Source: a virus. From it: a stretch of DNA of 64,000 nt. Both the position numbers and the translations under genes were made by a program. The notes under the pieces are model-generated. The model worked only from the letters and a program-made list of their open reading frames with translations. It searched no databases and was not told the origin of the DNA. Below, piece after piece: positions 15,860 to 27,629 of this stretch. Position 1 is the first letter of the stretch, and each line of letters opens with the position of its first letter. The stretch lies in the IMG/VR virus record IMGVR_UViG_3300025652_000043, positions 19,042-83,041 of that record; one strand, 5' to 3'.

Positions 15860-17485
15860 TTAGAATAATGAACCACCTTGACCTTGTGGCATAGGTGGAT
15901 TTTTCTCCATGAGTGTAGTAATAGTGCACTCTGTAGTTAACAGCATACCTGCTGCTGAAGCTGCATTTTCCAATGCAATTCTAGTTACCTTTACAGGGTC
16001 TATAATTCCAGCCTCTATCATATCAGCTTCATAAGAATTATTCCTTGCATTAAAACCAGAATTTTTCTTTCTTGATTTTAATACATTAGCAATAACTACA
16101 GAACCTTCTGCTCCTGCATTCTCTGCTATACATCTAATAGGGCTTTCAACAGCTTTTAGCACTAACTGTGCTCCAAGCAATAGAGTGCCTGTTAGAGGAC
16201 TTAAATCAACTTTGGCTCTAGCTTGTAAATAAGCTACACCACCACCAGAAACAATACCCTCTTCTAAAGCAGCCTTAGTTGCATTTTTAGAATCTTCTAC
16301 TCTGTCCATTTTCTCTTTCATTTCAGTCTCAGTAGGTGCTCCTACATAAATTACTCCTACACCACCTTTAAGAGAAGCTATTCTTTTTTTAAAGTCATTG
16401 GTTTCATAGTCATTTTCTGCACTTACCATTAAAGATTCAATTTCTTCTACTCTAAAGTTAATAATTTCAGGTTCACCTTTACCTCCTATTAAAATAGTGT
16501 CATGAAAATCAATCCTAACAGAGTCACATTTTCCAAAATCATCAGAAGTTACTTTATTCAAGTATTTACCTCTTTCTTTTGATACAATTTTACCTCCTAA
16601 AACAGTTTGAATATCTTCTAAATAGGCTTTTCTTCTTTCTCCAAATGCAGGTGGCTTTACTATAGCTACTTTCATTTGTCCTTCATAAGCATTAACCACT
16701 AAAGTTTCTAATGCTTGTCCTTCTACATCTCCTATAATCAACAAGGATTTTCCTTGTCCTATAGACTTATCTAAAATGTTTTTTAAAGGTGTACCAAAAC
16801 TATTAAGTTTATCTTCACACATAAGTACATATACATCTTCAAGGTGTACTTCACCTTTCTTTTTGTCATTGACAAAATAAGGAGAGATGTATCCTGAACC
16901 AAATTTCATACCTTCAGCAAGGTCTACATGAGTTGTAGTATCTTTAGATTGTTCTACAGATATAACACCTTCTTTACCTACTTTGGCATAAGCCATACCA
17001 ACTAATTCTCCTATTTCTTCATCATTATTAGAAGAAATAAAAGCAATTTGATTTAGTTCTTCATCTTCATTTCCTATTTCTACTGATAGTTTTTTAAGCT
17101 CATCAATAAGAAGTTCAGCTCCAATTTTAATACCTCTCTGTACTGCTACAGGGTTATGTCCATTAGAAATTAACCTCATACCTAGCTTAATAAGGGATTG
17201 AGTAAGTACTGAAGCAGTAGTAGTTCCATCTCCTGCTTTTTCATTAGTTTTAGATGCTGCAGCTTTTACAAATTGTGCACCCATATTTTGTAATCTATTA
17301 GGGAGTACAACCTCTCTAGCTACAGAAATACCATCTTTAGTAATTCCTGGATCACCAAAAGCTCTTTCAATCATTACATTTCTACCTTGTGGTCCTAAAG
17401 TCACTTTTACTGCATTTGCTAGGGCATCAACCCCTTTTTTCAATTGCTTCTTGGCTTTTTGTCCATGTACAATTTTTTTACTCAT
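15860..17485 (-). CDS. groEL: Chaperonin GroEL
   Basis: VKVTLGPQGRNV, TKDG, AGDGTTT, ALEEGIVSGGG, GIIDPVKV; 541 aa. Confidence 0.98.
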   Translation of the reverse strand: MSKKIVHGQKAKKQLKKGVDALANAVKVTLGPQGRNVMIERAFGDPGITKDGISVAREVVLPNRLQNMGAQFVKAAASKTNEKAGDGTTTASVLTQSLIKLGMRLISNGHNPVAVQRGIKIGAELLIDELKKLSVEIGNEDEELNQIAFISSNNDEEIGELVGMAYAKVGKEGVISVEQSKDTTTHVDLAEGMKFGSGYISPYFVNDKKKGEVHLEDVYVLMCEDKLNSFGTPLKNILDKSIGQGKSLLIIGDVEGQALETLVVNAYEGQMKVAIVKPPAFGERRKAYLEDIQTVLGGKIVSKERGKYLNKVTSDDFGKCDSVRIDFHDTILIGGKGEPEIINFRVEEIESLMVSAENDYETNDFKKRIASLKGGVGVIYVGAPTETEMKEKMDRVEDSKNATKAALEEGIVSGGGVAYLQARAKVDLSPLTGTLLLGAQLVLKAVESPIRCIAENAGAEGSVVIANVLKSRKKNSGFNARNNSYEADMIEAGIIDPVKVTRIALENAASAAGMLLTTECTITTLMEKNPPMPQGQGGSLF

Positions 17486-17750
17486 CTTCTTTTAGTTTAC
17501 AAATTAAATTATCTTCTGTTGTATGGATGTATTCTACACCCTCAATTGATACTTTAGAAAAGTCATACTGACCATATACTACTATATCTCCTATAGAGGT
17601 ATTTATAACCTCTTCACCTATTCCTACTACTTTACCTGCTAACTTTACAGTATCAGGTTCAACAGTATCAGGAATGATGTAGTCCTCATTTTCAGAGGAC
17701 TCATCTTCCATTTCTATGAGAATTCTTTTCCCATAAATACTTTCAATCAT
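17478..17750 (-). CDS. groES: Co-chaperonin GroES
   Basis: 90 aa directly upstream of groEL; IIPD, GKVVGIG, GDIVVY, IEGVEY pattern. Confidence 0.85.
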   Translation of the reverse strand: MIESIYGKRILIEMEDESSENEDYIIPDTVEPDTVKLAGKVVGIGEEVINTSIGDIVVYGQYDFSKVSIEGVEYIHTTEDNLICKLKEDE

Positions 17751-18348
17751 ATTTTGTTTTCTTTTTAGAATTAATAAATAATTTCAAATTAAAATACTCT
17801 TCTTCATCTTTCAAAGGAAGGTCTAATTCTCCAGTCCAATCATTATGTCCAACATTAGTTTTAAACATTTTGTTAATTTTTTCAACAAAAGGTTCAACAA
17901 GATTTGGATTTTTTAATAAAACATTTAACTCTTCTGGTCTGCTACTGAAAAGTTCAGATGCAACTTCAGAATCATACATTTTACTATAACTACTGATTTG
18001 GAAAAATTCATAAGTTTCTTTAAATTTTTCAGGTACTTTAATGACTATCATATGTAAATGTCCTTTGTGAATATCATCAAAAGGATAATCAAACTCATAA
18101 TAAGGTTGATGTCTCATCCACTGAATAGTAGCATTAAAATTTCTTCTTGAAAATTTAGTATCAATTAAAATGAAAATACTGTGTTCTATGAGTATGCCCA
18201 TATCTATAAGGGCAAAATCTCCTATACCTAAAGCTAACTTAAATAGATTGGTGAACTTCTTTTCAAAAGTTTCACCATAATCTATCAAAGTTGAAAGTAA
18301 ATATTTCTTAGTTTTATTGGTATAGATACTTCCTAACTGTATTTTCAT
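17743..18348 (-). CDS. Hypothetical protein
   Basis: 201-aa ORF tightly packed in the operon. Confidence 0.65.
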   Translation of the reverse strand: MKIQLGSIYTNKTKKYLLSTLIDYGETFEKKFTNLFKLALGIGDFALIDMGILIEHSIFILIDTKFSRRNFNATIQWMRHQPYYEFDYPFDDIHKGHLHMIVIKVPEKFKETYEFFQISSYSKMYDSEVASELFSSRPEELNVLLKNPNLVEPFVEKINKMFKTNVGHNDWTGELDLPLKDEEEYFNLKLFINSKKKTKYD

Positions 18349-18354
18349 TTCTAT

Positions 18355-19524
18355 TTAAATGATTAGGTCTCCATTATTTTCCATGACTACCTTATCCACT
18401 TCATATCCATTTTCCTCATGCCATTTATATAGCTCAAGAGCATATTCAAAACCTATAATAGGTTTATACTTAATAGGATGAAAAGGAGAATGAATTTGTC
18501 CTTTTTCTAAATCTGCTCTACTATGTGAAATTAAATATATTTCTGGTCTTCCATATTTACCTAAATCTAATTGTTCTTCAGATAGTGTAAACATTAGAGG
18601 TGACCCTTGAAAATATTGTGTTTCACCTGTCAACTTATTAGTTTTATACTTAGTAGTTTCAACCATAAACTTAAAAGGTAGTATTTCAAATTCTTCATTT
18701 ACTATTTCTTTTAATTCTATGAGTGTTTCCACATTTTCAGGGTTACTTAACAATGCATTAAGACCTTCTGTATAAAAAGAACCTTGGAAATTATATCCAA
18801 ATTTCTTAACTGCATCAGGGAATTCAACTGGAAATCCTGATGTTGTTTTAAGGTCAATTGGTAATATAGTTTCATTTAGAGTATCAACAATAACTATATC
18901 CAATAAAACTTTACATTCTACATCATCGTAGGTAAAGTATATTGGAACTTGAAAGAAGAAATTAACACCTAATGTACCTACTGTTTTAAGGTATTTACTG
19001 GTATACTTATTAGTTTCTAAAGACATAATAATATTACTTATGATATTTGATTCTACATCAGACAAAATCTGCTTTCCAAAAGCTAATTTTAAATCTTCAA
19101 AATAATCAAATCCCATTTCTGCAATTTTATTAATCCTAGTTTCTTCTTTCCATCTTGTCTGGTATTTATGGTCATCTGCAGAAGCTAGTATTGCATCAGA
19201 CCAACTATGTAGAGTTCCCACATCAATTGAACCTGAAACTTCAACAGCATGATCAAATACTTGATTAATCATACTCATAACTGTATCAGAGGGTTTTATA
19301 ATTCTAGACACATGATATTGCTCATTAAAAGCTTCCTTTCCTTGAGTTATCTGATAATCCACTGCTGAACCTATTACTAGATGTCCTTTTTCTTCATAGT
19401 ACATCTCTTGTTCAGTCTTTGCTAGAAAAGCTATTCCTCTTCTTAAATTCTTTAAATAAGAATTAGATGCTGCTTTTCTTTCAAAATAATCTATTACTTC
19501 TTCTTGTTTTCCTAATCTATACAT
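18355..19524 (-). CDS. PD-(D/E)XK exonuclease (exonuclease VIII/RecE-like)
   Basis: IGSAVD, KVLLD...IDLKTT and YNFQGSFY motifs. Confidence 0.8.
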   Translation of the reverse strand: MYRLGKQEEVIDYFERKAASNSYLKNLRRGIAFLAKTEQEMYYEEKGHLVIGSAVDYQITQGKEAFNEQYHVSRIIKPSDTVMSMINQVFDHAVEVSGSIDVGTLHSWSDAILASADDHKYQTRWKEETRINKIAEMGFDYFEDLKLAFGKQILSDVESNIISNIIMSLETNKYTSKYLKTVGTLGVNFFFQVPIYFTYDDVECKVLLDIVIVDTLNETILPIDLKTTSGFPVEFPDAVKKFGYNFQGSFYTEGLNALLSNPENVETLIELKEIVNEEFEILPFKFMVETTKYKTNKLTGETQYFQGSPLMFTLSEEQLDLGKYGRPEIYLISHSRADLEKGQIHSPFHPIKYKPIIGFEYALELYKWHEENGYEVDKVVMENNGDLII

Positions 19525-19952
19525 AAATCTGCTAGTTTTAAAAGTTCTTTAAAATCATTTAAAGTCATACTGACTATTTCATCAAATTCATTTCTTTTTC
19601 TTCCTCTACCAGTATCCTTTTTATGAATTAGAATATTCATATTCTTTAATTCAGGATAATGTGATGGAAAATTCTTCTTTACTTCTTCTTTAATTTTAGC
19701 CAACTCTTTGCTAACTATAAGACCTCTCTGTTTTCCAGCTTTAATCTGAATATTAAATGGTTCAGTAAAACATAAATCTATGCCTGAATCATCATGCAGC
19801 CTACTAGCTGCTCTTGAGGTTTTACATTTTTCAAATGCTGGTCCTAGTGCCCGAAACAAAGCAGCATAGTGCCTTTCAGCATCATGCCCCTTTGTTCTAT
19901 TCCTACTGCCTTGTGATCTAACTTTTCTCACAGGCTTATTCTCTTCTGCCAT
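19512..19952 (-). CDS. Holliday junction resolvase-like PD-(D/E)XK nuclease
   Basis: KGHDAER...GIDL...NIQIK pattern resembles Hjc-type resolvases. Confidence 0.65.
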   Translation of the reverse strand: MAEENKPVRKVRSQGSRNRTKGHDAERHYAALFRALGPAFEKCKTSRAASRLHDDSGIDLCFTEPFNIQIKAGKQRGLIVSKELAKIKEEVKKNFPSHYPELKNMNILIHKKDTGRGRKRNEFDEIVSMTLNDFKELLKLADLCID

Positions 19953-20618
19953 TTATATTGCCTTATTAAAAGCAAATAAATACTCTTTCATTTCTGTAAT
20001 AGACTTAAATTTAAGCCTTTTCAAGTTACTCTTAAAGCACCTATTCACTATATTATTAGTAATAATAACATCTACACCTTTATTAGAGTGAGGTAAAATT
20101 ATCTCTCTATAAAATTTATTGTAAATGGTTTTGTATTGTGCAGAGGTACAAAATTTATTTGACACAAGAATTGCAAATTTAGAATAGTCTAAGGGTCTAC
20201 CTTCCCTATCTTCTTCATGCATTTGCTTTGTATATTCAGTCTTAACAACAACAGAAAATAATATTTCTATATCTTCTTCAATTTTTCTAAAAAGAATACC
20301 TTTCATTGCAAACAATGGCTCTTCCATTGATTTAGTTTTGAAAGCATTAGGAACAGAATTTAAGTCTAAAAATTTATAAAGTAATTTATAACCTTTAGCT
20401 ACATTCTGTCCAGGAAGATAGTTTGGAACTCCATAATGAATTATTTTACCACTGTAGATACCCATATTTATAGTGGATGCCGTAATAGGTATATATTCAT
20501 TATCAGAGGAAATTCCAACAGCATTGCTATAAAACTCCACTGCTTCTCCTGCTCTTTCTTGTCTTTTTTTTAAATTAGAAAAATATTTGTCTCTTTTTAA
20601 TGTTATTAAGTCTATCAT
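19953..20618 (-). CDS. Hypothetical protein translationally coupled to the E1 gene
   Basis: 221 aa; ATGA overlap with the ThiF gene. Confidence 0.65.
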   Translation of the reverse strand: MIDLITLKRDKYFSNLKKRQERAGEAVEFYSNAVGISSDNEYIPITASTINMGIYSGKIIHYGVPNYLPGQNVAKGYKLLYKFLDLNSVPNAFKTKSMEEPLFAMKGILFRKIEEDIEILFSVVVKTEYTKQMHEEDREGRPLDYSKFAILVSNKFCTSAQYKTIYNKFYREIILPHSNKGVDVIITNNIVNRCFKSNLKRLKFKSITEMKEYLFAFNKAI

Positions 20619-21289
20619 GATGTCAAATTTATTGGTATAAAATACTCATGATAAAATGGAACTTGTCTTACTACACTACCTACTTTAATATTAGTCATAT
20701 GATTGGTAAAAAATCCAACCATTAGACTAGCTATCATAGTAGCTGAGTGAGAAGTCTGTTTCATAGTACAATTTTCTTCTTCTACCTCTGAATCATCAAA
20801 TAAATGTTCATCAAAATATTCTCTAGCATTAGTAGGAGTGACACAAAAAATCTGCATTTGCTCCATTAATAGTCTACCGTCTATTAATATTGCATTAGGA
20901 TTTTCACTGTTATCTCTCCACCATACCTCAAACATTTCTTTTCTAGCTTTCATATTATCAAAAGCTGCAAACATGTATTCATGTCCCATTGACTCTAAAG
21001 TGAATGGTTCATTAAATATTGTGATATAGCTGTCAGAGTACTCTAACACAATATTTTTCAAAGCCTCAACTTTGTCTAGTCCTATATGTTTTTTTCCAAA
21101 TAATTGTCCACCTAAATTGTGCTGTTCAATTATATCAAAATCATATACAACAGGACTAAACCCTGCTCTGGCTAATAAGAAAGTTAACCAACTTCCTATT
21201 CCTCCTGCACCACCAATTAAGGTATTAATTTCCTCTTCAGGAAACCATGGTGCATCTTTAAATCTACTTCTTATTTCTGTCTTATTCAT
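20615..21289 (-). CDS. E1/ThiF-family adenylyltransferase (Ubl-activating enzyme-like)
   Basis: GAGGIGS, DFDIIEQHNLGGQ, DNMKAR, IDGR; candidate catalytic Cys174 (EENCT); no CxxC zinc motifs. Confidence 0.92.
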   Translation of the reverse strand: MNKTEIRSRFKDAPWFPEEEINTLIGGAGGIGSWLTFLLARAGFSPVVYDFDIIEQHNLGGQLFGKKHIGLDKVEALKNIVLEYSDSYITIFNEPFTLESMGHEYMFAAFDNMKARKEMFEVWWRDNSENPNAILIDGRLLMEQMQIFCVTPTNAREYFDEHLFDDSEVEEENCTMKQTSHSATMIASLMVGFFTNHMTNIKVGSVVRQVPFYHEYFIPINLTS

Positions 21290-22457
21290 GTACTGCTAAT
21301 TTTGTAAGCATTGCTTCTAAAGACATTTTAAGTGGTGCACATATTGGATACACACCCTCAAAATCCTCTAATATTGCCATTACTCCTATTGTTGTATCAA
21401 TAAAAACTTCTGTGTTAATCTCTCCAAATACATCCCAAAACTTTTCAAATAGTGCTGGATACATTATTAGAACTTTATTAATATATTCTTCTGAATGTAC
21501 CATGCCTAAAGTATTTTCAAGTGTATCCTCTAAATCTTCTCTATCATTTATAGGAAGATTACCTAGATTTATTACATTTTGTAAAAAACTTTCCATTCTT
21601 TTTTCTTTAATTTGTACATCAGGTGTCATGGAAAAAGAGTTGTTCCACATATCAGCATCTAAATCTTCCATTTCTTTATCCATCATAGCATCATTAGATC
21701 TAAACCCATTAAAATTACCTGGACTTACATAAGGATTTACTTTTGAAAATGGATTTAAAAGCTTTTGACTTTCAAATTGTTTTACATTTTTTTTAAAAAC
21801 TTTTTGCTTTAAATTAGAAGCATTAATAATCTCTAAAGTTCTATCAGCAAAATCTTTAGGAACTTTAACAAATGTCTTAGGTTCACTAATTTTACAATCA
21901 AAATGAAACATAACTTGTCTTTCTTTTTTCAAAGTTAAATCCCATGGTTGTCCTGCTTCATCTTTACATTCATAAGCTTTTATAGTACCTCTAAAAGCAA
22001 CTTTTGCTACTTTCTCTCCTCTATTATTCACTACTAATGATAGATAATAATTGTGAAATTCAGTATTATCATCTAATTCATCCATATCAGTTCCAGAAAA
22101 ATAACTTTTCATATTATGATGGGAGTGAATCATTCCAATTTTCCAAGCTAAAGTTTCAGGATTATCCATTCTATATGAAATAAAATTTTCTCCTAATTCA
22201 TATCCTGTTGCACCTGTAGTACCTTTATCCATAGGGTATACATCTTGTACAACAAGTTTCATCTTACTAAAATTGGTTATACTACCCTCTACAGTATAAA
22301 ATAAAACTCCTGACCATTCTACTTTATTAATTTTCTGGCATAAATAGTCTATTTTTTCTTGTACTTTCTTTGGTATTTTCAATGGTATCAAGTTGTTCAA
22401 TAATATATCTTCTAATTCTACTTTTTTGAATTTTTGATTCAATTCTTTTTGTGACAT
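21282..22457 (-). CDS. JAB/JAMM metallopeptidase with C-terminal extension
   Basis: EWSG followed by IHSHHNMKSYFSGTD, an exact E...HxH-x7-S-x2-D JAMM consensus. Confidence 0.9.
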   Translation of the reverse strand: MSQKELNQKFKKVELEDILLNNLIPLKIPKKVQEKIDYLCQKINKVEWSGVLFYTVEGSITNFSKMKLVVQDVYPMDKGTTGATGYELGENFISYRMDNPETLAWKIGMIHSHHNMKSYFSGTDMDELDDNTEFHNYYLSLVVNNRGEKVAKVAFRGTIKAYECKDEAGQPWDLTLKKERQVMFHFDCKISEPKTFVKVPKDFADRTLEIINASNLKQKVFKKNVKQFESQKLLNPFSKVNPYVSPGNFNGFRSNDAMMDKEMEDLDADMWNNSFSMTPDVQIKEKRMESFLQNVINLGNLPINDREDLEDTLENTLGMVHSEEYINKVLIMYPALFEKFWDVFGEINTEVFIDTTIGVMAILEDFEGVYPICAPLKMSLEAMLTKLAVHE

Positions 22458-23499
22458 AATCTTTTATTGTTTTAGTTATGAAGAAAGGTTTAACTGTTTC
22501 TTCATTTGGAATTACTTTAAATTTTTTTATTTCTCCTTTAAATATGAAATCAAAATTTCTATATTCTTCTTCTTCAGACATGTAATAAGAAAGGTCTTTA
22601 GGTATATTTCTATAAGTATAGTAATTACCTTTACTGTCTTTTTGTGCAATATGATCAGGTGGATAATCACCATTATGGTCATATATTTTAAGATACTCTT
22701 CAAAAGCAGTATCTTGAGCTATTTTAACATTATCTCTTGTGATTATAAAGTTAATATTAGATGTTCCTTTCTTTTCAATAAGGTCTATATAATATTTTCT
22801 TATATGTTGTGGAGAAACATTTCTACATTCTCCTCCACCTATTACATTAGCAATTTTTATATGTGGTGTACCTTCTAAAGATTCCCAATTTAAATACTCT
22901 TCTAATTGCATTAGAAATAATTTAAATATGTCTGGTTTAAAACCAGAAGACAACATTGTTAATACTTGTCTAATTTCACTTGTACCTAAACAAAATGAAT
23001 TAAATGTTAATCCACTCTTACCTTCTAAAGGAAAGTAACTTTTATAGTTTCTTGATGGTAAATGGCTGTGCTGATAAGAAGAAAATATTTCTCCTTCTGT
23101 AGCTGTCATTCTTTTACCTTGAAAACTATGAAAAGTAAATCCGTTATTATGACTATAAGGTAAAAGCTTAATATATAAATCAACAATTTTATGTCTCATT
23201 CCAGGAGAATTAGTAATATTAATCTCAGGAAAATATAAAATAAAATCTAAAGTAAAATACCTTTCTTTGTCAACTATTAAACCCTCATTTGCATTGACTT
23301 TTTTATTGTACCTTAACAAGATATCCCATTTTTCAGGATATACAGCATCTAAACAAGATGCTATTGAGTCAATTTTCTCATTGACTCCTTTATAATTTAA
23401 ACTAAGTTTACCATATTTCTCTATGGCTTTAACAGACCTAATCTTTTTCTCAATAGAAGACCTGTTAAATGCTTCTATATAAATATCTTTTCTGTTCAT
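22327..23499 (-). CDS. Putative prokaryotic E2 (Ubl-conjugating) domain protein
   Basis: YQHSHLP (H144/H146) then FCLG (C170), resembling the E2 His...CL(G/D) signature; lies between the Ubl and JAB genes. Confidence 0.6.
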   Translation of the reverse strand: MNRKDIYIEAFNRSSIEKKIRSVKAIEKYGKLSLNYKGVNEKIDSIASCLDAVYPEKWDILLRYNKKVNANEGLIVDKERYFTLDFILYFPEINITNSPGMRHKIVDLYIKLLPYSHNNGFTFHSFQGKRMTATEGEIFSSYQHSHLPSRNYKSYFPLEGKSGLTFNSFCLGTSEIRQVLTMLSSGFKPDIFKLFLMQLEEYLNWESLEGTPHIKIANVIGGGECRNVSPQHIRKYYIDLIEKKGTSNINFIITRDNVKIAQDTAFEEYLKIYDHNGDYPPDHIAQKDSKGNYYTYRNIPKDLSYYMSEEEEYRNFDFIFKGEIKKFKVIPNEETVKPFFITKTIKDYVTKRIESKIQKSRIRRYIIEQLDTIENTKESTRKNRLFMPEN

Positions 23500-23513
23500 T
23501 TTTTTATTTTAAA

Positions 23514-23548
23514 TAAAAAGCCAAAGACACTATATCTTTGGCTTTTAT
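23514..23548 (-). terminator. Intrinsic terminator between the Ubl-fusion and E2 genes
   Basis: aaaagccaaaga-cactata-tctttggctttt, followed by a T tract on the - strand. Confidence 0.75.
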
Positions 23549-23563
23549 GAGTTATAAATATTT

Positions 23564-24544
23564 CTATCTAACATCATTAAATTGACTTCTCATGTCTTGC
23601 AACTTTTGATTCAATTCATTTTGTTTTTTCTCTTCAGCTTCAGCTTTTTTTCTTTCTTCTTTTTCAGCTTTAGCTTTTAATTCAGCCTCCTCTTTAGCTA
23701 AAGCTTCTTTTAAAGCTATTGCAGCTTTTTCTTTAATCTTTTTAGCTTTCTTAGCTTCTTTTGCTAACTGTTTGGTCCAAATTTTAGTAGCCTTATTAAG
23801 CTTTTTTTCTAGTCTTTTAGTAATAGCTTCTATATCTTCATGTAAGTCTTCATCTAACTCACTAAAATTAACTACTCTAAGTAAAGAAATTGCATCAACT
23901 AAAGAGTCTAAACTAATATGAGAATTATCTTTAAAATGAGCTAAATTAACCTCCTTCTCTTCAGTTGTAGAAATTTTTTGAGCATTTTCCTTTACAGACT
24001 TAACAATATTAACAACTTTTTGAGCTTTTTCAATAATATTATTAATCCTAGTTTCTTCAATATCATCTTTTTTAGGCTTTTCAGCTTTCACCTTTTTAAC
24101 AGGTGTTTTCTTTACTTTTGGTGTAACTGATGTCATACCTAAATCTTCTAAAGCTGGTATTGTACCAGTATAGTTGCTTAATAATGCTCTTAAGATTTCT
24201 GTACCTTTAATGGTGTAATTTTTACCACCTCCATTAAAGTAGTCTTTAGCAGTTCCATCACCAGCCACAAGCTCTTTAATTGTAGCCCTAAGTTGCTTAT
24301 AACTATAAGCTGATACATCTGCACCAGCTTTAGTTTTTTTGTTCATTAGAAATAAGGTAAAACCTTCAGTAGGTAATACAGCTCCATCAGCTTCTAATGT
24401 TAACTTATTCTCTCCAATAACAGCTTTCATCTTGTTATAAGAAACATTATTTGCATCTAAATCATTTTGTAACTCACCCCAATTTTTGGCATCAGTGGTC
24501 ACTTCTTTTTCACCCATTTGGGTGGAGAAAACTTTTACTATCAT
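23564..24544 (-). CDS. Putative ubiquitin-like (beta-grasp) domain fused to a helical and Lys/Glu/Ala-rich coiled-coil tail
   Basis: First 74 aa show a beta-beta-alpha-beta-beta-beta pattern ending FTLFLMNKKTKAG, then low-complexity sequence; sits upstream of E2, JAB and E1. Confidence 0.6.
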   Translation of the reverse strand: MIVKVFSTQMGEKEVTTDAKNWGELQNDLDANNVSYNKMKAVIGENKLTLEADGAVLPTEGFTLFLMNKKTKAGADVSAYSYKQLRATIKELVAGDGTAKDYFNGGGKNYTIKGTEILRALLSNYTGTIPALEDLGMTSVTPKVKKTPVKKVKAEKPKKDDIEETRINNIIEKAQKVVNIVKSVKENAQKISTTEEKEVNLAHFKDNSHISLDSLVDAISLLRVVNFSELDEDLHEDIEAITKRLEKKLNKATKIWTKQLAKEAKKAKKIKEKAAIALKEALAKEEAELKAKAEKEERKKAEAEEKKQNELNQKLQDMRSQFNDVR

Positions 24545-24565
24545 CTATAAAATTTTTGTTTGTTA

Positions 24566-25624
24566 TTATTTTATTAATTTATTCTCTAACAAGAAGTTTG
24601 TTAGAGGTACTTTACCTTTATTTTTTATAAGGTCTGCAGGATCAGAAATTTTATCTCTTAATAGACTTGTTTTAAGATGAATACCCCTTGATTTTTTAGG
24701 GTAAACACTATTAATTTTATCTACTAATTTTTCTGAAGCAATTATTCCTGCTCTATCATTATCAAAAAATACTATAATCTCCTTAAATCTCTCTAGGAGT
24801 GGATACAATATTTCATCATTTGGGTACATTCCTTCATTTTGAAAAGCTATAACATTTAATCCTTGATTTTTAAGAATTCTCCAATCCTTATAAGATTTAG
24901 TTATTATTAATTGCTTTCCTTTTAAGGGTAAATTATTTAGTCCCCAAATATCATTTGCACAACAATTTGTAGCCCATTTACCTTTTCCTTTTTTATCAGG
25001 TGTATATATTTTAACTCTAGGATTAAAATTACCCACTAGATAAGACCTAGTTTGAGGTCTTATTACTACATGAGACCTTAATCTTTTAGAAAAAACTTTA
25101 TACCAAATTATAGGGAAGACATTATCTTCTATAAGGTCACTCCTACTAATTTCTAAAGGAGACCAGAAATCCTTATCTCCAAGAGAGTTAAACATTCTGA
25201 CTTTAAATGGCATTTCATGTGAGATTTTCTTTTTACTTTTTACTTGAATAATCTCTTTCTTTTTATTGGCAACATAATCAGAGTCATCATGATGACCTGC
25301 TAATAAATTTAGTTTAAAATGGTCATTAACTATTTCTAAAGATTTATAAAAAGATACTTCAAAATGGTCTTGTACCATATTAAAACAATCTCTATGTTTT
25401 CTTTTTTGAATAGGTTCTGCCCAATCTATAAACCAAAAAGTATTTTTATACCATTCAAAATAGCAATCAGGTAGGTTATCTTTTCTAAAAGGAGAATGAA
25501 CATATTGATGTTCTGTAGGCATATAACCTAATATCATTTTAAAAATGTCTTGTTGTGAAATTTTAGCTAATATATCCTCTTTAGATATATAAACTCTTGC
25601 TTCTCTATAACCATATCCACCCAT
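24566..25624 (-). CDS. DNA primase (TOPRIM, crAss-like)
   Basis: HSPFRKDNLPDC N-terminal region, IITKSYKD and FFDNDRAG, KISDPAD. Confidence 0.85.
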   Translation of the reverse strand: MGGYGYREARVYISKEDILAKISQQDIFKMILGYMPTEHQYVHSPFRKDNLPDCYFEWYKNTFWFIDWAEPIQKRKHRDCFNMVQDHFEVSFYKSLEIVNDHFKLNLLAGHHDDSDYVANKKKEIIQVKSKKKISHEMPFKVRMFNSLGDKDFWSPLEISRSDLIEDNVFPIIWYKVFSKRLRSHVVIRPQTRSYLVGNFNPRVKIYTPDKKGKGKWATNCCANDIWGLNNLPLKGKQLIITKSYKDWRILKNQGLNVIAFQNEGMYPNDEILYPLLERFKEIIVFFDNDRAGIIASEKLVDKINSVYPKKSRGIHLKTSLLRDKISDPADLIKNKGKVPLTNFLLENKLIK

Positions 25625-25652
25625 TATTGTCTTTGCTATTTATGTTAATATA

Positions 25653-25684
25653 AAAAGAGGTCAAGTATTAACTCAACCTCTTTC
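25653..25684 (-). terminator. Intrinsic terminator
   Basis: aaaagaggt...acctctttt imperfect hairpin after the 25696-26475 gene. Confidence 0.55.
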
Positions 25685-25695
25685 TACTTATTTTA

Positions 25696-26475
25696 TTACC
25701 AATCTCCACCATCAGAAGCTGATGCAGAACTTTGCATAGCAGCACCACCTGCTGATTGAGCTTCTTTTTGCTGATGAGCAAAATTAGATTCCATAAACCA
25801 TCCATTTCTAGTGAAAGGATGCTTATTTCCATCTGTGTCAACATACCTCAATGCAACTTCATTTAAAGCTGCTGCTGGGTTTTGTTGTTTCTCCCATTTA
25901 CCTACAGGAGCAATAGATGCTTGTAACCATCTACCATGCTTCATGTTCTTTGGAAACTCTAAATAAGTGTTCTTAGCTTCTCCACCAATTTGCCATTGCC
26001 ATACTCCAAAGCCATCAAGAGGCTTTGTAGCAAAGTCTTCAGGTAAAAGATTAGCTAAAATGTCACAAAAGTGTTTGAATCCACTTATTTGTGTTTGCAA
26101 AGCAGCTTGAATATCTGCTTTAGGTACAAAACAACCAACAATGTGAGTCAAAATTTGACTTAACAATTGTTTCTCTGCTGCAATAGCAGGATGATTAGGG
26201 TCAGTAACTTCTACTTGTCCCCCTGTAGCTTCATCTTTCACATAAGCTCTTGTGATAGGAAACTTTCTGTATCCTCTATCATTTCCATCAATAGTGAACA
26301 TGATGTCCATTGCTTCTAAATCTGCTCCATCTTTTCCACCATGCATAGTGTGTTGAAACTTGGTAAGTCTTACATTACCTGCATTTAAACCAAAGACAAA
26401 TGAACTCTCTTTAGCTTTATGCTCTGAAAAGCCATACCCTGACTGTGCAGGAGCTTTTGCGTTTGTATTATCCAT
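25696..26475 (-). CDS. Probable single-stranded DNA-binding protein
   Basis: Lies downstream of the Sak4-like ATPase; flexible Ala/Ser/Gly tail ending in acidic-aromatic DGGDW. Confidence 0.5.
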   Translation of the reverse strand: MDNTNAKAPAQSGYGFSEHKAKESSFVFGLNAGNVRLTKFQHTMHGGKDGADLEAMDIMFTIDGNDRGYRKFPITRAYVKDEATGGQVEVTDPNHPAIAAEKQLLSQILTHIVGCFVPKADIQAALQTQISGFKHFCDILANLLPEDFATKPLDGFGVWQWQIGGEAKNTYLEFPKNMKHGRWLQASIAPVGKWEKQQNPAAALNEVALRYVDTDGNKHPFTRNGWFMESNFAHQQKEAQSAGGAAMQSSASASDGGDW

Positions 26476-26531
26476 AAATTTTATTGAATTTATAAAGTTA
26501 TAAAATTATTTTTTACCAGTCTAATAGATGA

Positions 26532-26849
26532 TTAAAATTCATCTGAAATTTCTGGATCTTGAGCTATAAGTTCTGGTATTTCCATTACCTCTTCCATTAT
26601 TGGTTGTGGGTCTGTAAGCTCTGCTGTTCCAACTTCTTCAGTATCATCTATTAAGACAAATCCTGGGGCAGGAGTAGTTTTTCTTCCTTTCAATTTTTCA
26701 TGAGAAAATAAAGCTTTCATATCTTTTCCTGAAAGCTTGTACTTTGCTTGAATCATTGCTCTTGTTAGCCCATTTCCTAAATCAGCTAATACTCCACTTA
26801 CTGTTAACTGCACTGTTGTTGGTGCAGTATTTTCACTTAAATCTGACAT
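26532..26849 (-). CDS. Small HTH-like protein with acidic tail
   Basis: GLTRAMIQAKYKLSGKDMKALF helix pattern; acidic C-terminus. Confidence 0.5.
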   Translation of the reverse strand: MSDLSENTAPTTVQLTVSGVLADLGNGLTRAMIQAKYKLSGKDMKALFSHEKLKGRKTTPAPGFVLIDDTEEVGTAELTDPQPIMEEVMEIPELIAQDPEISDEF

Positions 26850-26879
26850 ATCTGTCTATTTTTAATATTAATTAATAAA

Positions 26880-27629
26880 TTATTGTTTTACTACTTCCTT
26901 TTTTGTTTCAACTCCATGGTTGTAGTTATGTAGAGCTTTTGCCACTGCACCTAAATCATTAAGAATATAAACATCCTCAAACATTCCAACAGGGGACTTT
27001 GCAGGGAATTGTCCATCAAAGTTGGTTACAAATGATTTTGTAACTTTCTTTTCTTTATCATCCCATTCTTGTTTCCCATAAAGAACTATTGTAAACAGTC
27101 CTTCTAAGGTCACTTTACTATCTAGCATTTTACCAATAGTTTTCATTTTATAGCTAGTTTGAAAACTATTCTCAATCACTTCTGAATGAGTAAGTACAAA
27201 GAAGTTTAAATCTTCTCTTCCCATAATTCCAGCATTGATTACATCATAAGCATTTTTGGCAAGTTTATTAAACTTATCAAAACCTGCTTTTAATGCATTA
27301 GCCATAAATTCTTCAGACATTAAATATTGATAATCATCAATAACAATGTTTTGAATATCAGGTCTATTTGCATTAACAAAGTTTATTACTTTGATAATGT
27401 CATAAGGATTAGAACTTCCTAAATAGTTTCCTATTTTAGGTGGTCCTTTACTTATGTCTACTGGTGTGTACTTATTTTTCCATCCTCTAAATGGAAGTGG
27501 TTTACTCTTTACATTAATTAGAAAAGTCTCTTCAGGCTTTAGACCCATAATACCTAGTTCAGGTATATGTCCTAAAGATGTGGTTTTTCCAAATCCACTC
27601 TCTGTTACTACTGCTACTGCATTTGACAT
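26880..27629 (-). CDS. P-loop ATPase, Sak4/AAA_24-like recombination protein
   Basis: ESGFGKTTS Walker A, IVIDD Walker B, AKSP motif. Confidence 0.82.
   Translation of the reverse strand: MSNAVAVVTESGFGKTTSLGHIPELGIMGLKPEETFLINVKSKPLPFRGWKNKYTPVDISKGPPKIGNYLGSSNPYDIIKVINFVNANRPDIQNIVIDDYQYLMSEEFMANALKAGFDKFNKLAKNAYDVINAGIMGREDLNFFVLTHSEVIENSFQTSYKMKTIGKMLDSKVTLEGLFTIVLYGKQEWDDKEKKVTKSFVTNFDGQFPAKSPVGMFEDVYILNDLGAVAKALHNYNHGVETKKEVVKQ

Follow-up and report, generated by a model that had tools for sequence, protein, structure and literature searches.

Introduction

To our knowledge, conjugation of ubiquitin-like (Ubl) proteins in prokaryotes has so far been shown only for cellular systems, most of which act against phages. 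In two of these systems a JAB peptidase processes a Ubl precursor at a conserved Gly, BubCD acting on BubAB in one (PMC11601596) and BilC serving this role in the other (PMC10557695). Here we describe a cassette of five genes in a 64,000-nucleotide stretch of DNA from a crAss-like phage (the window; positions 19,042 to 83,041 of IMG/VR virus record IMGVR_UViG_3300025652_000043), which encodes a Ubl precursor, a 390-residue E2-like protein, a JAB/JAMM metallopeptidase, a minimal E1 and a fifth protein of conserved position. Known here from its genes and from models of their products alone, the cassette probably represents a phage-encoded Ubl conjugation pathway of the thioester type.

By analogy, the cassette would work most like Bil. 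In Bil, the Ubl, E2, JAB and E1 are each encoded by a gene of their own; the Ubl is processed by the JAB to a bare Gly, both E1 and E2 carry a candidate carrier Cys, and there is no E3 gene (PMC10557695; PMC11601596). The same layout of separate genes with a Ubl precursor, for which cleavage is predicted, is present in the window and in related loci. The two differ in their E1, which is an IAD-AAD-CYS enzyme in Bil and a single adenylation domain of 224 residues in the phage (PMC10557695; PMC11601596), and the presence of one ThiF domain in place of that three-part enzyme rules out membership in Bil as described there. In addition, the phage E2-like protein is 390 residues long, with a big extra C-terminal region and no match to an E2 sequence model, the phage Ubl carries a tail of 252 residues, and the genes lie in a phage replication module rather than in a bacterial defence island.

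Type I Bub (BubAB/BubCD/BubE, formerly 6E.1) resembles the cassette in that an N-terminal Ubl fusion is cut by a JAB after a conserved Gly and in that the E1 is minimal, of the UBA5/ThiF type and probably homodimeric (PMC11601596). Moreover, BubB (9eav_D) was recovered when the phage E2-like model was compared with known folds. Bub, in contrast, has a Ubl-E2 and a JAB-E1 fusion, whereas the phage has one gene for each and joins its Ubl to a helical tail; the Bub E1 is described as lacking a crossover-loop Cys and using a Tyr, and BubB as using a Ser, with formation of an oxyester (PMC11601596). In the phage family, the Cys of the E1 is near-invariant and that of the E2-like protein invariant. 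No Pfam match corresponding to BubE/DUF6527 was found in any cassette protein, Pfam giving only ThiF and JAB. With four separate open reading frames (ORFs) in 75 of 80 loci, and with a Cys kept on both E1 and E2, the cassette falls outside Type I Bub.

E1-like, E2-like and JAB activities also come together in Cap2/Cap3 of type II CBASS, and Cap2 is found among both the E2-fold and the E1-sequence matches of the phage proteins. Cap2, however, is an E2-E1 fusion that conjugates a CD-NTase without a separate Ubl, whereas the phage has separate E1 and E2 and a dedicated Ubl; the separate E2 and E1 genes, and a cassette without a nucleotidyltransferase, place it outside Cap2/Cap3. The PRTRC models of NCBIfam (TIGR03735/TIGR03736) gave 22.7 bits against a cut-off of 144.75 for PRTRC_ThiF and 18.9 bits against 101.8 for PRTRC protein A. 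An earlier annotation of the same DNA (the first-pass annotation) had set the cassette beside PRTRC, Bil and CBASS; as membership, this placement fails, the PRTRC scores lying far under cut-off, the E1 not being of the IAD-AAD-CYS kind and E1 and E2 not being fused.

Among phages, the lambdoid/T1 tail-assembly proteins TAPI and TAPK provide a partial likeness, with a phage Ubl that has a C-terminal Gly, a fused C-terminal domain and a JAB predicted to cut there (PMC1779556). Unlike the cassette, these tail-assembly modules have no E1 or E2, and their JAB is coupled to an NlpC/P60 domain; the excerpts of PMC1779556 available describe only this Ubl-JAB pair of the lambdoid tail clusters. Word searches of the available text of PMC10557695 and PMC11601603 found no mention of phage-encoded, prophage, viral genomes or crAss, and the full-text literature, with subscription papers on crAss-like phages and supplementary annotation tables outside the search, yielded no description of the operon in crAss-like or other phages. 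We read the cassette as a third architecture of prokaryotic-type Ubl cascades, encoded by a virus and distinct from Bil, Bub, Cap2/Cap3 and PRTRC.

Results

The Ubl precursor

The 326-residue translation of the precursor gene begins with a 74-residue domain ending in KTKAG, as the first-pass annotation had pointed out. An AlphaFold2 (AF2) model, built on an alignment of 25 close relatives, shows a beta-beta-alpha-beta-beta order, with values of the predicted local distance difference test (pLDDT) of 86-95 over residues 1-70 and flexible residues at 71-74. When the model was compared with the Protein Data Bank (PDB) by Foldseek, all the rows listed were ubiquitin, NEDD8, SUMO, ISG15 or Ubl/UBX proteins, aligned over 73-79 columns with TMt values of 0.56-0.69. 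The E-values started at 3.1e-3, with none at 1e-3, as is expected because the 74-residue domain sits inside a 326-residue query. VIA-align against 48,161 chains returned the Ubl domain of TINCR at Z 8.4 (root-mean-square deviation (rmsd) 2.1, 67/75) and a ubiquitin fusion at Z 8.3. The beta-grasp anticipated for this N-terminus was borne out by AlphaFold followed by Foldseek and VIA-align, and, as modeled, the 74-residue domain is a ubiquitin-like beta-grasp. Both the fold and a flexible tail ending in a conserved Gly, looked for in a beta-grasp modifier, are present. The modeled fold by itself cannot tell a protein modifier from a sulfur carrier. By sequence, the precursor matched no model (Pfam, NCBIfam, PDB profile), and a search of PDB sequences with its profile found no relative, only coiled-coil noise.

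Among the 25 close relatives, residues 1-74 are near-invariant throughout, and T71, K72, A73 and G74 are invariant; the tail region is far more variable than residues 1-74, except for a short helical segment and an F-x-D-V end. A wider set of 75 distinct Ubl sequences was made up of the Ubl matches from 80 related viral loci (see below) together with those of the first 12 loci. In most of these the beta-grasp ends in K-x-K-[SA]-G, with some variants and a conserved Gly, and the number of residues after this Gly varies from about 0 or 1 to about 300. Twelve of the Ubl genes are free-standing (75-89 amino acids) and have 1-11 residues past the Gly (1-4 in 10 of the 12), with endings such as ...S-G-I, ...S-G-E, ...G-K, ...S-G-N-E and ...S-G-V-N-V. 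The precursors of ubiquitin, NEDD8 and SUMO have this same layout, with short removable residues after the Gly, which argues that the Gly is the functional C-terminus and is exposed by a peptidase. On these alignments, Gly74 is the predicted activated C-terminus of the phage Ubl.

In the AF2 model, the tail consists of a small helical domain (about residues 82-135), a low-confidence linker rich in Lys and Glu and a long helix (232-321); VIA-align of residues 197-298 gave generic helical matches only. At its very end F322 is invariant, and D324 and V325 are conserved in at least 90% of the close relatives. The precursor C-terminus (window positions 23564-23578) reads F-x-D-V in close relatives; in more distant ones, a brief motif containing a Gly and an aromatic residue takes its place. 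Such a terminal motif might be bound by a partner protein as a docking peptide. At 9 of the 12 loci with a free-standing Ubl, a small acidic ORF (30-105 amino acids) directly follows the Ubl gene, and its product often ends much as the fused tails do, for example in ...R-Q-L-N-G-Q, ...E-L-G-G or a terminal aromatic residue. Because a separate acidic ORF with a tail-like end follows the free-standing Ubl, we regard the tail as a separable module and not as a linker; judging from these ORFs, it looks like an independent gene that is mostly found joined to the Ubl. One relative (L072:4760-5751) has two tandem Ubl-precursor genes (148 and 157 amino acids) before the E2 gene.

The JAB peptidase

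The exact JAMM motif reported earlier is present in the JAB protein as HSHHNMKSYFSGTD, which reads HxHx7SxxD, with Glu47 upstream. Among 53 relatives H111, H113, S121 and D124 are invariant and E47 is conserved in at least 90%; on sequence grounds, the active site is complete. The Pfam family Prok-JAB (PF14464) was matched by 23 of the 53 relatives at E<=0.01, with a best value of 1.4e-7, and the JAB of the window matched PRTRC_A and the PADLOC JAB model at E-values of about 1e-3 to 1e-2 (PADLOC JAB, 0.0072). The catalytic domain lies in about the first 190 residues, and the C-terminal half (about 200-391) is poorly conserved.

The E1

The 224-residue translation contains the GxGGxG loop of a ThiF/E1 enzyme, in the form GGAGGIG, and Cys174, both as first noted. 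It matched Pfam ThiF (PF00899) with 54.8 bits (cut-off 28.1; E 9.9e-15) over residues 22-191. In an alignment of 55 sequences G27, G29, D50, D52, N58, Q62, K73, D111, R116 and R139 are invariant, and R9 and C174 are conserved in at least 90%; C174 is found in 99% of 69 relatives. With a score above the cut-off, the Gly residues of the ATP loop and the Asp, Lys and Arg residues in place, the protein belongs to the ThiF/MoeB/E1 adenylating superfamily.

The best sequence matches of the E1 profile in the PDB are UBA5 (3.6e-13), MccB (6.1e-13), PaaA (1.1e-10), MoeB (1e-10) and ThiF (2.1e-10), with further matches to TcdA, Uba1, UBA3 and Cap2, the E-values ranging from 1e-13 to 1e-6. The PADLOC models of the Cap2-type 'E1-E2' matched the gene with E-values down to 3.3e-8, at profile positions of the E1 half only. 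The best named NCBIfam matches were ThiF/MoeB models, all far under their cut-offs.

Like UBA5, ThiF and MoeB, the phage E1 has a single adenylation domain, and its Cys downstream of the adenylation core recalls C250 of UBA5 (PMC11601596). Unlike those enzymes, to which it aligns in its N-terminal half alone, it has no zinc-binding CxxC pairs (the window E1 contains only two cysteines) and no UFD or rhodanese extension, nor does it have an IAD or an inserted Cys domain. It is presumably a homodimer of the UBA5/ThiF size class, as judged from its sequence. At the 80 loci, its relatives are 194-381 amino acids long, mostly 220-260.

The E2-like protein

The H..FCLG protein of the first-pass annotation is legible in the 390-residue translation, with HSH at residues 144-146 and FCLG containing Cys170. 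Its family comprises 3,177 representatives at E<=1e-3 in a library of 1.84 billion proteins. Among 135 diverse members S145, H146, C170, G172 and E206 are invariant, and C170 is also invariant in all 71 sequences derived from the loci.

An AF2 model based on the 135-member alignment had a pLDDT of 91.6 and a predicted template modelling score of 0.86. From the N-terminus, the model runs through helices, four long strands in antiparallel arrangement (58-130), a long loop that holds H144-S145-H146 and C170, and helices at 175-184 and 189-203, an order that fits the UBC fold; C170 lies five residues ahead of the first of these last two helices. A UBC/UEV-like core (about residues 15-210) is followed by a C-terminal region of about 180 residues. 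VIA-align of the model with the 48,161 representative chains gave one chain at Z>=5. By their titles, 36 of 50 rows are E2, UEV, RWD, Cap2 or BubB chains and 9 are unrelated; five more are complexes that we take to hold a domain of the E2/UEV/RWD type. The best of this wide comparison was the UEV domain of Tsg101 (Z 5.7, rmsd 3.9, 132/143), and BubB 9eav_D (Z 4.6, rmsd 3.5, 113/128) and Cap2 (Z 3.9) were also found. Among the top 995 chains of Foldseek, VIA-align gave the TSG101 UEV at Z 6.1 (rmsd 3.8, 132/139) and Ubc9 at Z 4.0-4.4. Based on the model, a UBC fold is probable.

Residues 3-143 of the Ubc9 chain align to residues 37-224 of the model. As a rough inference, counting back from the C-terminal anchor of this alignment, Cys93 of Ubc9 would correspond to about model residue 174, near C170. 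The S145/H146 pair is reminiscent of the Ser-x-His that BubB uses in catalysis (PMC11601596), and by this analogy an oxyester route through the Ser is possible.

Other searches with this protein gave no lead: a 13-sequence profile found no relative in the PDB, BFVD returned uncharacterised crAss-like proteins only, and the ESM Atlas model was poor (pLDDT 0.29). The sequence families of E2 (UQ_con, Prok-E2_A to E) were matched neither by the window protein nor among the families listed for its relatives, and we do not assign the protein to any of them.

Conservation of the cassette and its fifth gene

We fetched 80 viral loci through the E2-like family and called their ORFs and families with our own scripts. 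In 75 of the 80, the Ubl, E2, JAB and E1 genes occur in this order and on the same strand, a fixed synteny. The exceptions are four loci cut by contig ends (L038, L048, L057 and L092) and one without a Ubl match (L085).

The fifth gene is conserved in position more than in sequence. A match to its family was found at 39 of the 80 loci, and a co-directional ORF starts between -120 and +150 nucleotides from the end of the E1 gene at 74 of 79. Of the 32 distinct neighbours without a family match, at least 17 weakly match the fifth-gene family (E<=1e-4, calculated against that small set). The fifth protein had no Pfam, NCBIfam, PHROG or PADLOC match, and none in the PDB with its profile; the ESM Atlas gave no usable lead (feature scores <=0.86, model pLDDT 0.34), and the aligned relatives share no invariant residue of a catalytic type. 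From these alignments, we read the fifth gene as a fast-evolving partner that is fixed in position.

The nearest cultured relatives by E1 identity are Flavobacterium psychrophilum phages of the FpV4 group (58%), followed at 39-41% by Bacteroides phages of the crAss001 type and other Steigviridae. The family is thus represented in cultured phages that are FpV4-like, crAss001-like and DAC17, grown on Flavobacterium psychrophilum (FpV4), Bacteroides intestinalis (crAss001) and B. thetaiotaomicron (DAC17). FpV4 and cr111_1 have the same run of genes after the primase, and the GenBank labels of these genes are 'hypothetical', 'contains metalloprotease domain' and 'thiamine biosynthesis protein ThiF'. 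At the nucleotide level, megablast of the cassette against the phage collection gave no match.

In the phage collection, 79 records have a relative of the E1 and 71 a relative of the E2 family, and the surplus includes four Xanthomonas phages and one Erwinia phage. By sequence, these records may carry a related gene of the ThiF type and lack the other cassette genes. A narrow-pattern scan of contigs from cellular genomes gave five pattern matches, none of them confirmed, and says little on absence from cellular genomes.

ORFs for homing endonucleases invade the operon in some relatives (Table 1). At the gathering score, Rfam found no intron family and one tRNA only in six relatives with split genes.

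Genomic context of the cassette

The window is part of a record of 83,041 bases (CheckV completeness 88%). The setting in a replication block, noticed earlier, is confirmed: upstream of the cassette lies a DnaG-type primase (TIGR01391, E 1.2e-8; phrog_12622, 8.1e-61), and downstream are a RusA-like resolvase and an exonuclease VIII-like PD-(D/E)XK gene. The description of five contiguous, co-oriented genes is right as to orientation, all five being on the minus strand, and fails as to simple contiguity, in that the 390- and 391-residue ORFs overlap by 131 nucleotides (22327-22457, minus strand). The overlap brings together, in different frames, the 3' end of the E2-like gene and the 5' end of the JAB gene. 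The two ORFs overlap at 66 of 69 loci; the median overlap, with the starts of the longest ORFs, is 83 nucleotides. At least part of it looks real, because residues from about 24 on seem necessary for the JAB fold and no ATG occurs inside the frame ahead of residue 66; translational coupling may be the cause.

Complete GroES (90 amino acids) and GroEL (541 amino acids) proteins are encoded, according to their translations, at window positions 15860-17750 (minus strand), just downstream of the recombination genes. Rfam at the gathering threshold found nothing in window positions 17000-27000. DNA contigs of at least 99% identity from three other freshwater studies span most of the region (sequencing runs with less than 0.2 of the sampled words were left out of this reading of habitat), and the phage is therefore a freshwater phage.

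A hairpin after the Ubl gene

Between the stop of the Ubl precursor gene (23564) and the start of the E2-like gene (23499), we found a hairpin of 14 pairs followed by a U-run, terminator- or attenuator-like in appearance. The RNA of 23495-23575 (minus strand) folds with a minimum free energy of -18.7 kcal/mol (z -4.27), which none of 200 shuffles equaled; this statistic covers the spacer of the window. A scan for consensus terminators listed no minus-strand site between the two genes, and the hairpin is seen by folding alone. In the 69 loci with distinct Ubl sequences, the median length of the spacer is 63 nucleotides. If the hairpin acts as a terminator or attenuator, the tag would be made in excess of its enzymes.

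An RNA library contained two contigs without a single difference from the window, at 24047-24285 and 24359-24509, both within the Ubl gene; elsewhere there were scraps of 18-34 nucleotides, and no full-length contig was found for the E2, JAB and E1 genes. DNA can occur in RNA libraries and uncovered parts prove nothing, and we take the two contigs as a weak hint in line with a surplus of Ubl transcript.

Table 1. Features of the cassette and of related loci. Positions are those of the window, except where a locus (L) is named.
Feature	Position	Strand	Basis
Ubl precursor (326 aa)	23564-24544	minus	ORF translation
Ubiquitin-like beta-grasp domain, precursor residues 1-74	24323-24544	minus	AF2 model, Foldseek, VIA-align, conservation
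Precursor C-terminal tail, residues 75-326	23564-24322	minus	AF2 model and conservation
Hairpin and U-run, terminator- or attenuator-like	23516-23546	minus	RNA folding
E2-like protein (390 aa)	22327-23499	minus	ORF translation and AF2 model
JAB/JAMM (MPN+) metallopeptidase (391 aa)	21282-22457	minus	Motif and Pfam Prok-JAB
Minimal ThiF/MoeB-type E1 adenylating enzyme (224 aa), with Cys174	20615-21289	minus	Pfam ThiF
Fifth gene (221 aa)	19953-20618	minus	Position-conserved ORF
Small acidic ORF in the gap between Ubl and E2 genes	L030, L036, L045, L058, L066, L076, L080, L082, L091		
GIY-YIG/NUMOD gene between Ubl and E2 genes	L030:4760-5632		
LAGLIDADG gene between halves of JAB gene	L038:1404-2150	minus	
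LAGLIDADG gene between halves of JAB gene	L072:7480-8118	minus	
LAGLIDADG gene between two E1 pieces	L031:8750-9562		
LAGLIDADG gene between JAB and E1 genes	L023:8171-8965		

Discussion

The core of the first-pass reading, a phage-borne cassette of a Ubl, a JAB, an E1 and an E2-like protein, stands on the Ubl fold, the ThiF match, the JAB motif and the fixed gene order. From the layout of the precursor, the folds and the conservation of the motifs, which are seen directly, we infer every chemical step of the following scheme. The tag would probably be produced in excess of its enzymes, its gene being followed by the hairpin and U-run. The JAB would cut the precursor after Gly74, giving rise to a 74-residue Ubl with a K-T-K-A-G end and, separately, to a helical, acidic tail protein. 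The minimal E1 of the UBA5/ThiF type, acting as a homodimer, would adenylate Gly74 and probably load the Ubl onto Cys174, on the assumption that this residue is in the crossover loop. From the E1, the Ubl would pass to Cys170 of the 390-residue UBC-like protein, the C-terminal region of which, perhaps with the product of the fifth gene, may pick the targets; the Ubl would finally become attached to a lysine, in a protein of either phage or host. The same JAB might also take the tag off again. As conjectural purposes, the first-pass annotation had put forward the modification of host or phage replication proteins and the countering of Ubl-based host defence. The site of the cassette, beside primase and recombination genes, suggests that it acts during genome replication.

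Several observations weigh against this scheme. The most serious concern the E2-like protein, which matches no E2 model in Pfam, NCBIfam or PADLOC; moreover, no E2 family is among the 25 of 58 matched families listed for 111 of its relatives at E<=1. Foldseek of its model against the PDB gave nothing at E<=1e-3, with Cap2 and Ubc9 at probabilities of 0.1 or less. Its Z-scores, up to 6.1, fall in the range that VIA-align itself calls common (Z <8), and it is because of this that we grade the UBC fold as probable only. The folds that it matches best are those of UEV domains, E2 relatives devoid of catalytic activity. The earlier assignment as an E2 is thus weaker than it was put: the conserved Cys170 and a confident UBC-like model support it, and the lack of an E2 sequence model, the null result with Foldseek and the modest Z-scores count against it. 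Known E1s align with the E1 profile in its N-terminal half only (positions 18-123), and C174 is for this reason placed in a crossover loop only tentatively. The JAB of the window reaches 20.5 bits with Prok-JAB (E 4.6e-4), under the cut-off of 25, and neither single-sequence nor profile searches of the PDB found a solved JAB by sequence. The conjugating end of the Ubl is [SA]-G and not G-G, its beta-grasp fits the MoaD-type subunit of human molybdopterin synthase (5mpo_B, Z 8.2 with VIA-align) as well as it fits ubiquitin, and no E3 is evident in the cassette. Finally, the set of 80 loci was assembled through the E2 family, and near-duplicates occur in it; 69 of the loci have distinct Ubl sequences.

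The likeness to MoaD bears on the main rival function, which we consider rather improbable, that of a sulfur carrier of the ThiS/MoaD/TtuB/QbsE type. The JAB would then trim the carrier, the E1 would adenylate it, a thiocarboxylate would donate sulfur to a nucleotide, a cofactor or a small molecule, and the conserved cysteines of the E1 and the 390-residue protein would hand on persulfide sulfur. That the best named NCBIfam models of the E1 are ThiF and MoeB, all far under their cut-offs, that GenBank labels this gene 'thiamine biosynthesis protein', and that a JAB, an E1 and a trimmed carrier co-occur in sulfur pathways, such as CysO/Mec+ and QbsE/QbsD (PMC1779556), all speak for such a role. 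However, the absence of sulfur-transfer genes that had been noted in the first pass extends to the whole 83,041-base record, in which Rhodanese (PF00581), Aminotran_5 (PF00266), ATP_bind_3 (PF01171) and PAPS_reduct (PF01507) had no match, in a search that found each family in 13 or 14 of the 14 genomes used as controls. The record is rated 88% complete, and the sulfur could come from host enzymes. Neither the 224-residue E1, which is without a rhodanese domain, nor the UBC-like protein with an invariant Cys that is fixed in the operon is readily accommodated by sulfur transfer.

An unlikely but slightly more probable candidate is counter-defence, a matter of purpose that is compatible with conjugation: the JAB would strip conjugates of a host Ubl or CD-NTase, or a decoy Ubl would flood or mis-charge the host enzymes of Bil, Bub or type II CBASS. 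Bacterial Ubl systems are known to act against phages (PMC11601596; PMC10557695), and the matches of the E1 to the PADLOC Cap2-type 'E1-E2' models (E to 3.3e-8) and of the JAB to the PADLOC JAB (0.0072) agree with such a target. Yet a syntenic four-gene cascade with a fast-evolving fifth gene exceeds the needs of a deconjugase or a decoy, the operon lies in the replication module and not among early anti-defence genes, and it is kept in phages of very different hosts and habitats. We give very little credence to the notion that the cassette serves in processing only, with the Ubl as a cleavable folding or solubility partner of the tail, as in fusions of ubiquitin with ribosomal proteins, the JAB freeing the tail and the E1 and the 390-residue protein acting elsewhere, for example in an adenylation like that by MccB or PaaA. 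It draws on the separability of the tail, which most relatives carry as a fusion and some encode in a small acidic ORF apart from the Ubl, and on MccB (6.1e-13) and PaaA (1.1e-10) being among the best PDB matches of the E1 profile. Against it, the free-standing Ubl genes retain the Gly, a short removable tail and the JAB-E1-E2 set, and residues 1-74 are far better conserved than the tail, which is the reverse of what is expected of a mere carrier.

Conjugation by a cascade of the thioester type thus remains our preferred reading, and it extends beyond the window. We see an even chance that crAss-like phages (gut Crassvirales and those of the FpV4, crAss001 and DAC types) run a full cascade of their own, a third family beside Bil and Bub, that tags host or phage proteins in the course of infection. 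Taken jointly with this, and at the same strength, the cascade would combine a UBA5-like, Cys-bearing minimal E1, a giant UBC-like E2 whose additional domain serves as its own substrate receptor, a JAB encoded by itself and a Ubl that is cut free of a tail protein, with targets that may be, for example, replication or recombination factors or host defence proteins. If true, this would be the first ubiquitination system of a virus of bacteria, and the attacker rather than the cell would carry a complete and strictly conserved Ubl kit. The idea is open to direct test, since relatives of the cassette are found in the cultured phages FpV4, crAss001 and DAC17.

The crAss-like phages dominate the human gut virome, and about half of their genes are without an assigned function. 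Should the cascade be active, four or five conserved 'hypothetical' genes of these phages would be given a name, and a new minimal E1/E2 architecture would become available for thinking about the early history of ubiquitination. An active cascade would also raise the question of what the phage gains from tagging, whether control of replication, takeover of host factors or counter-defence.

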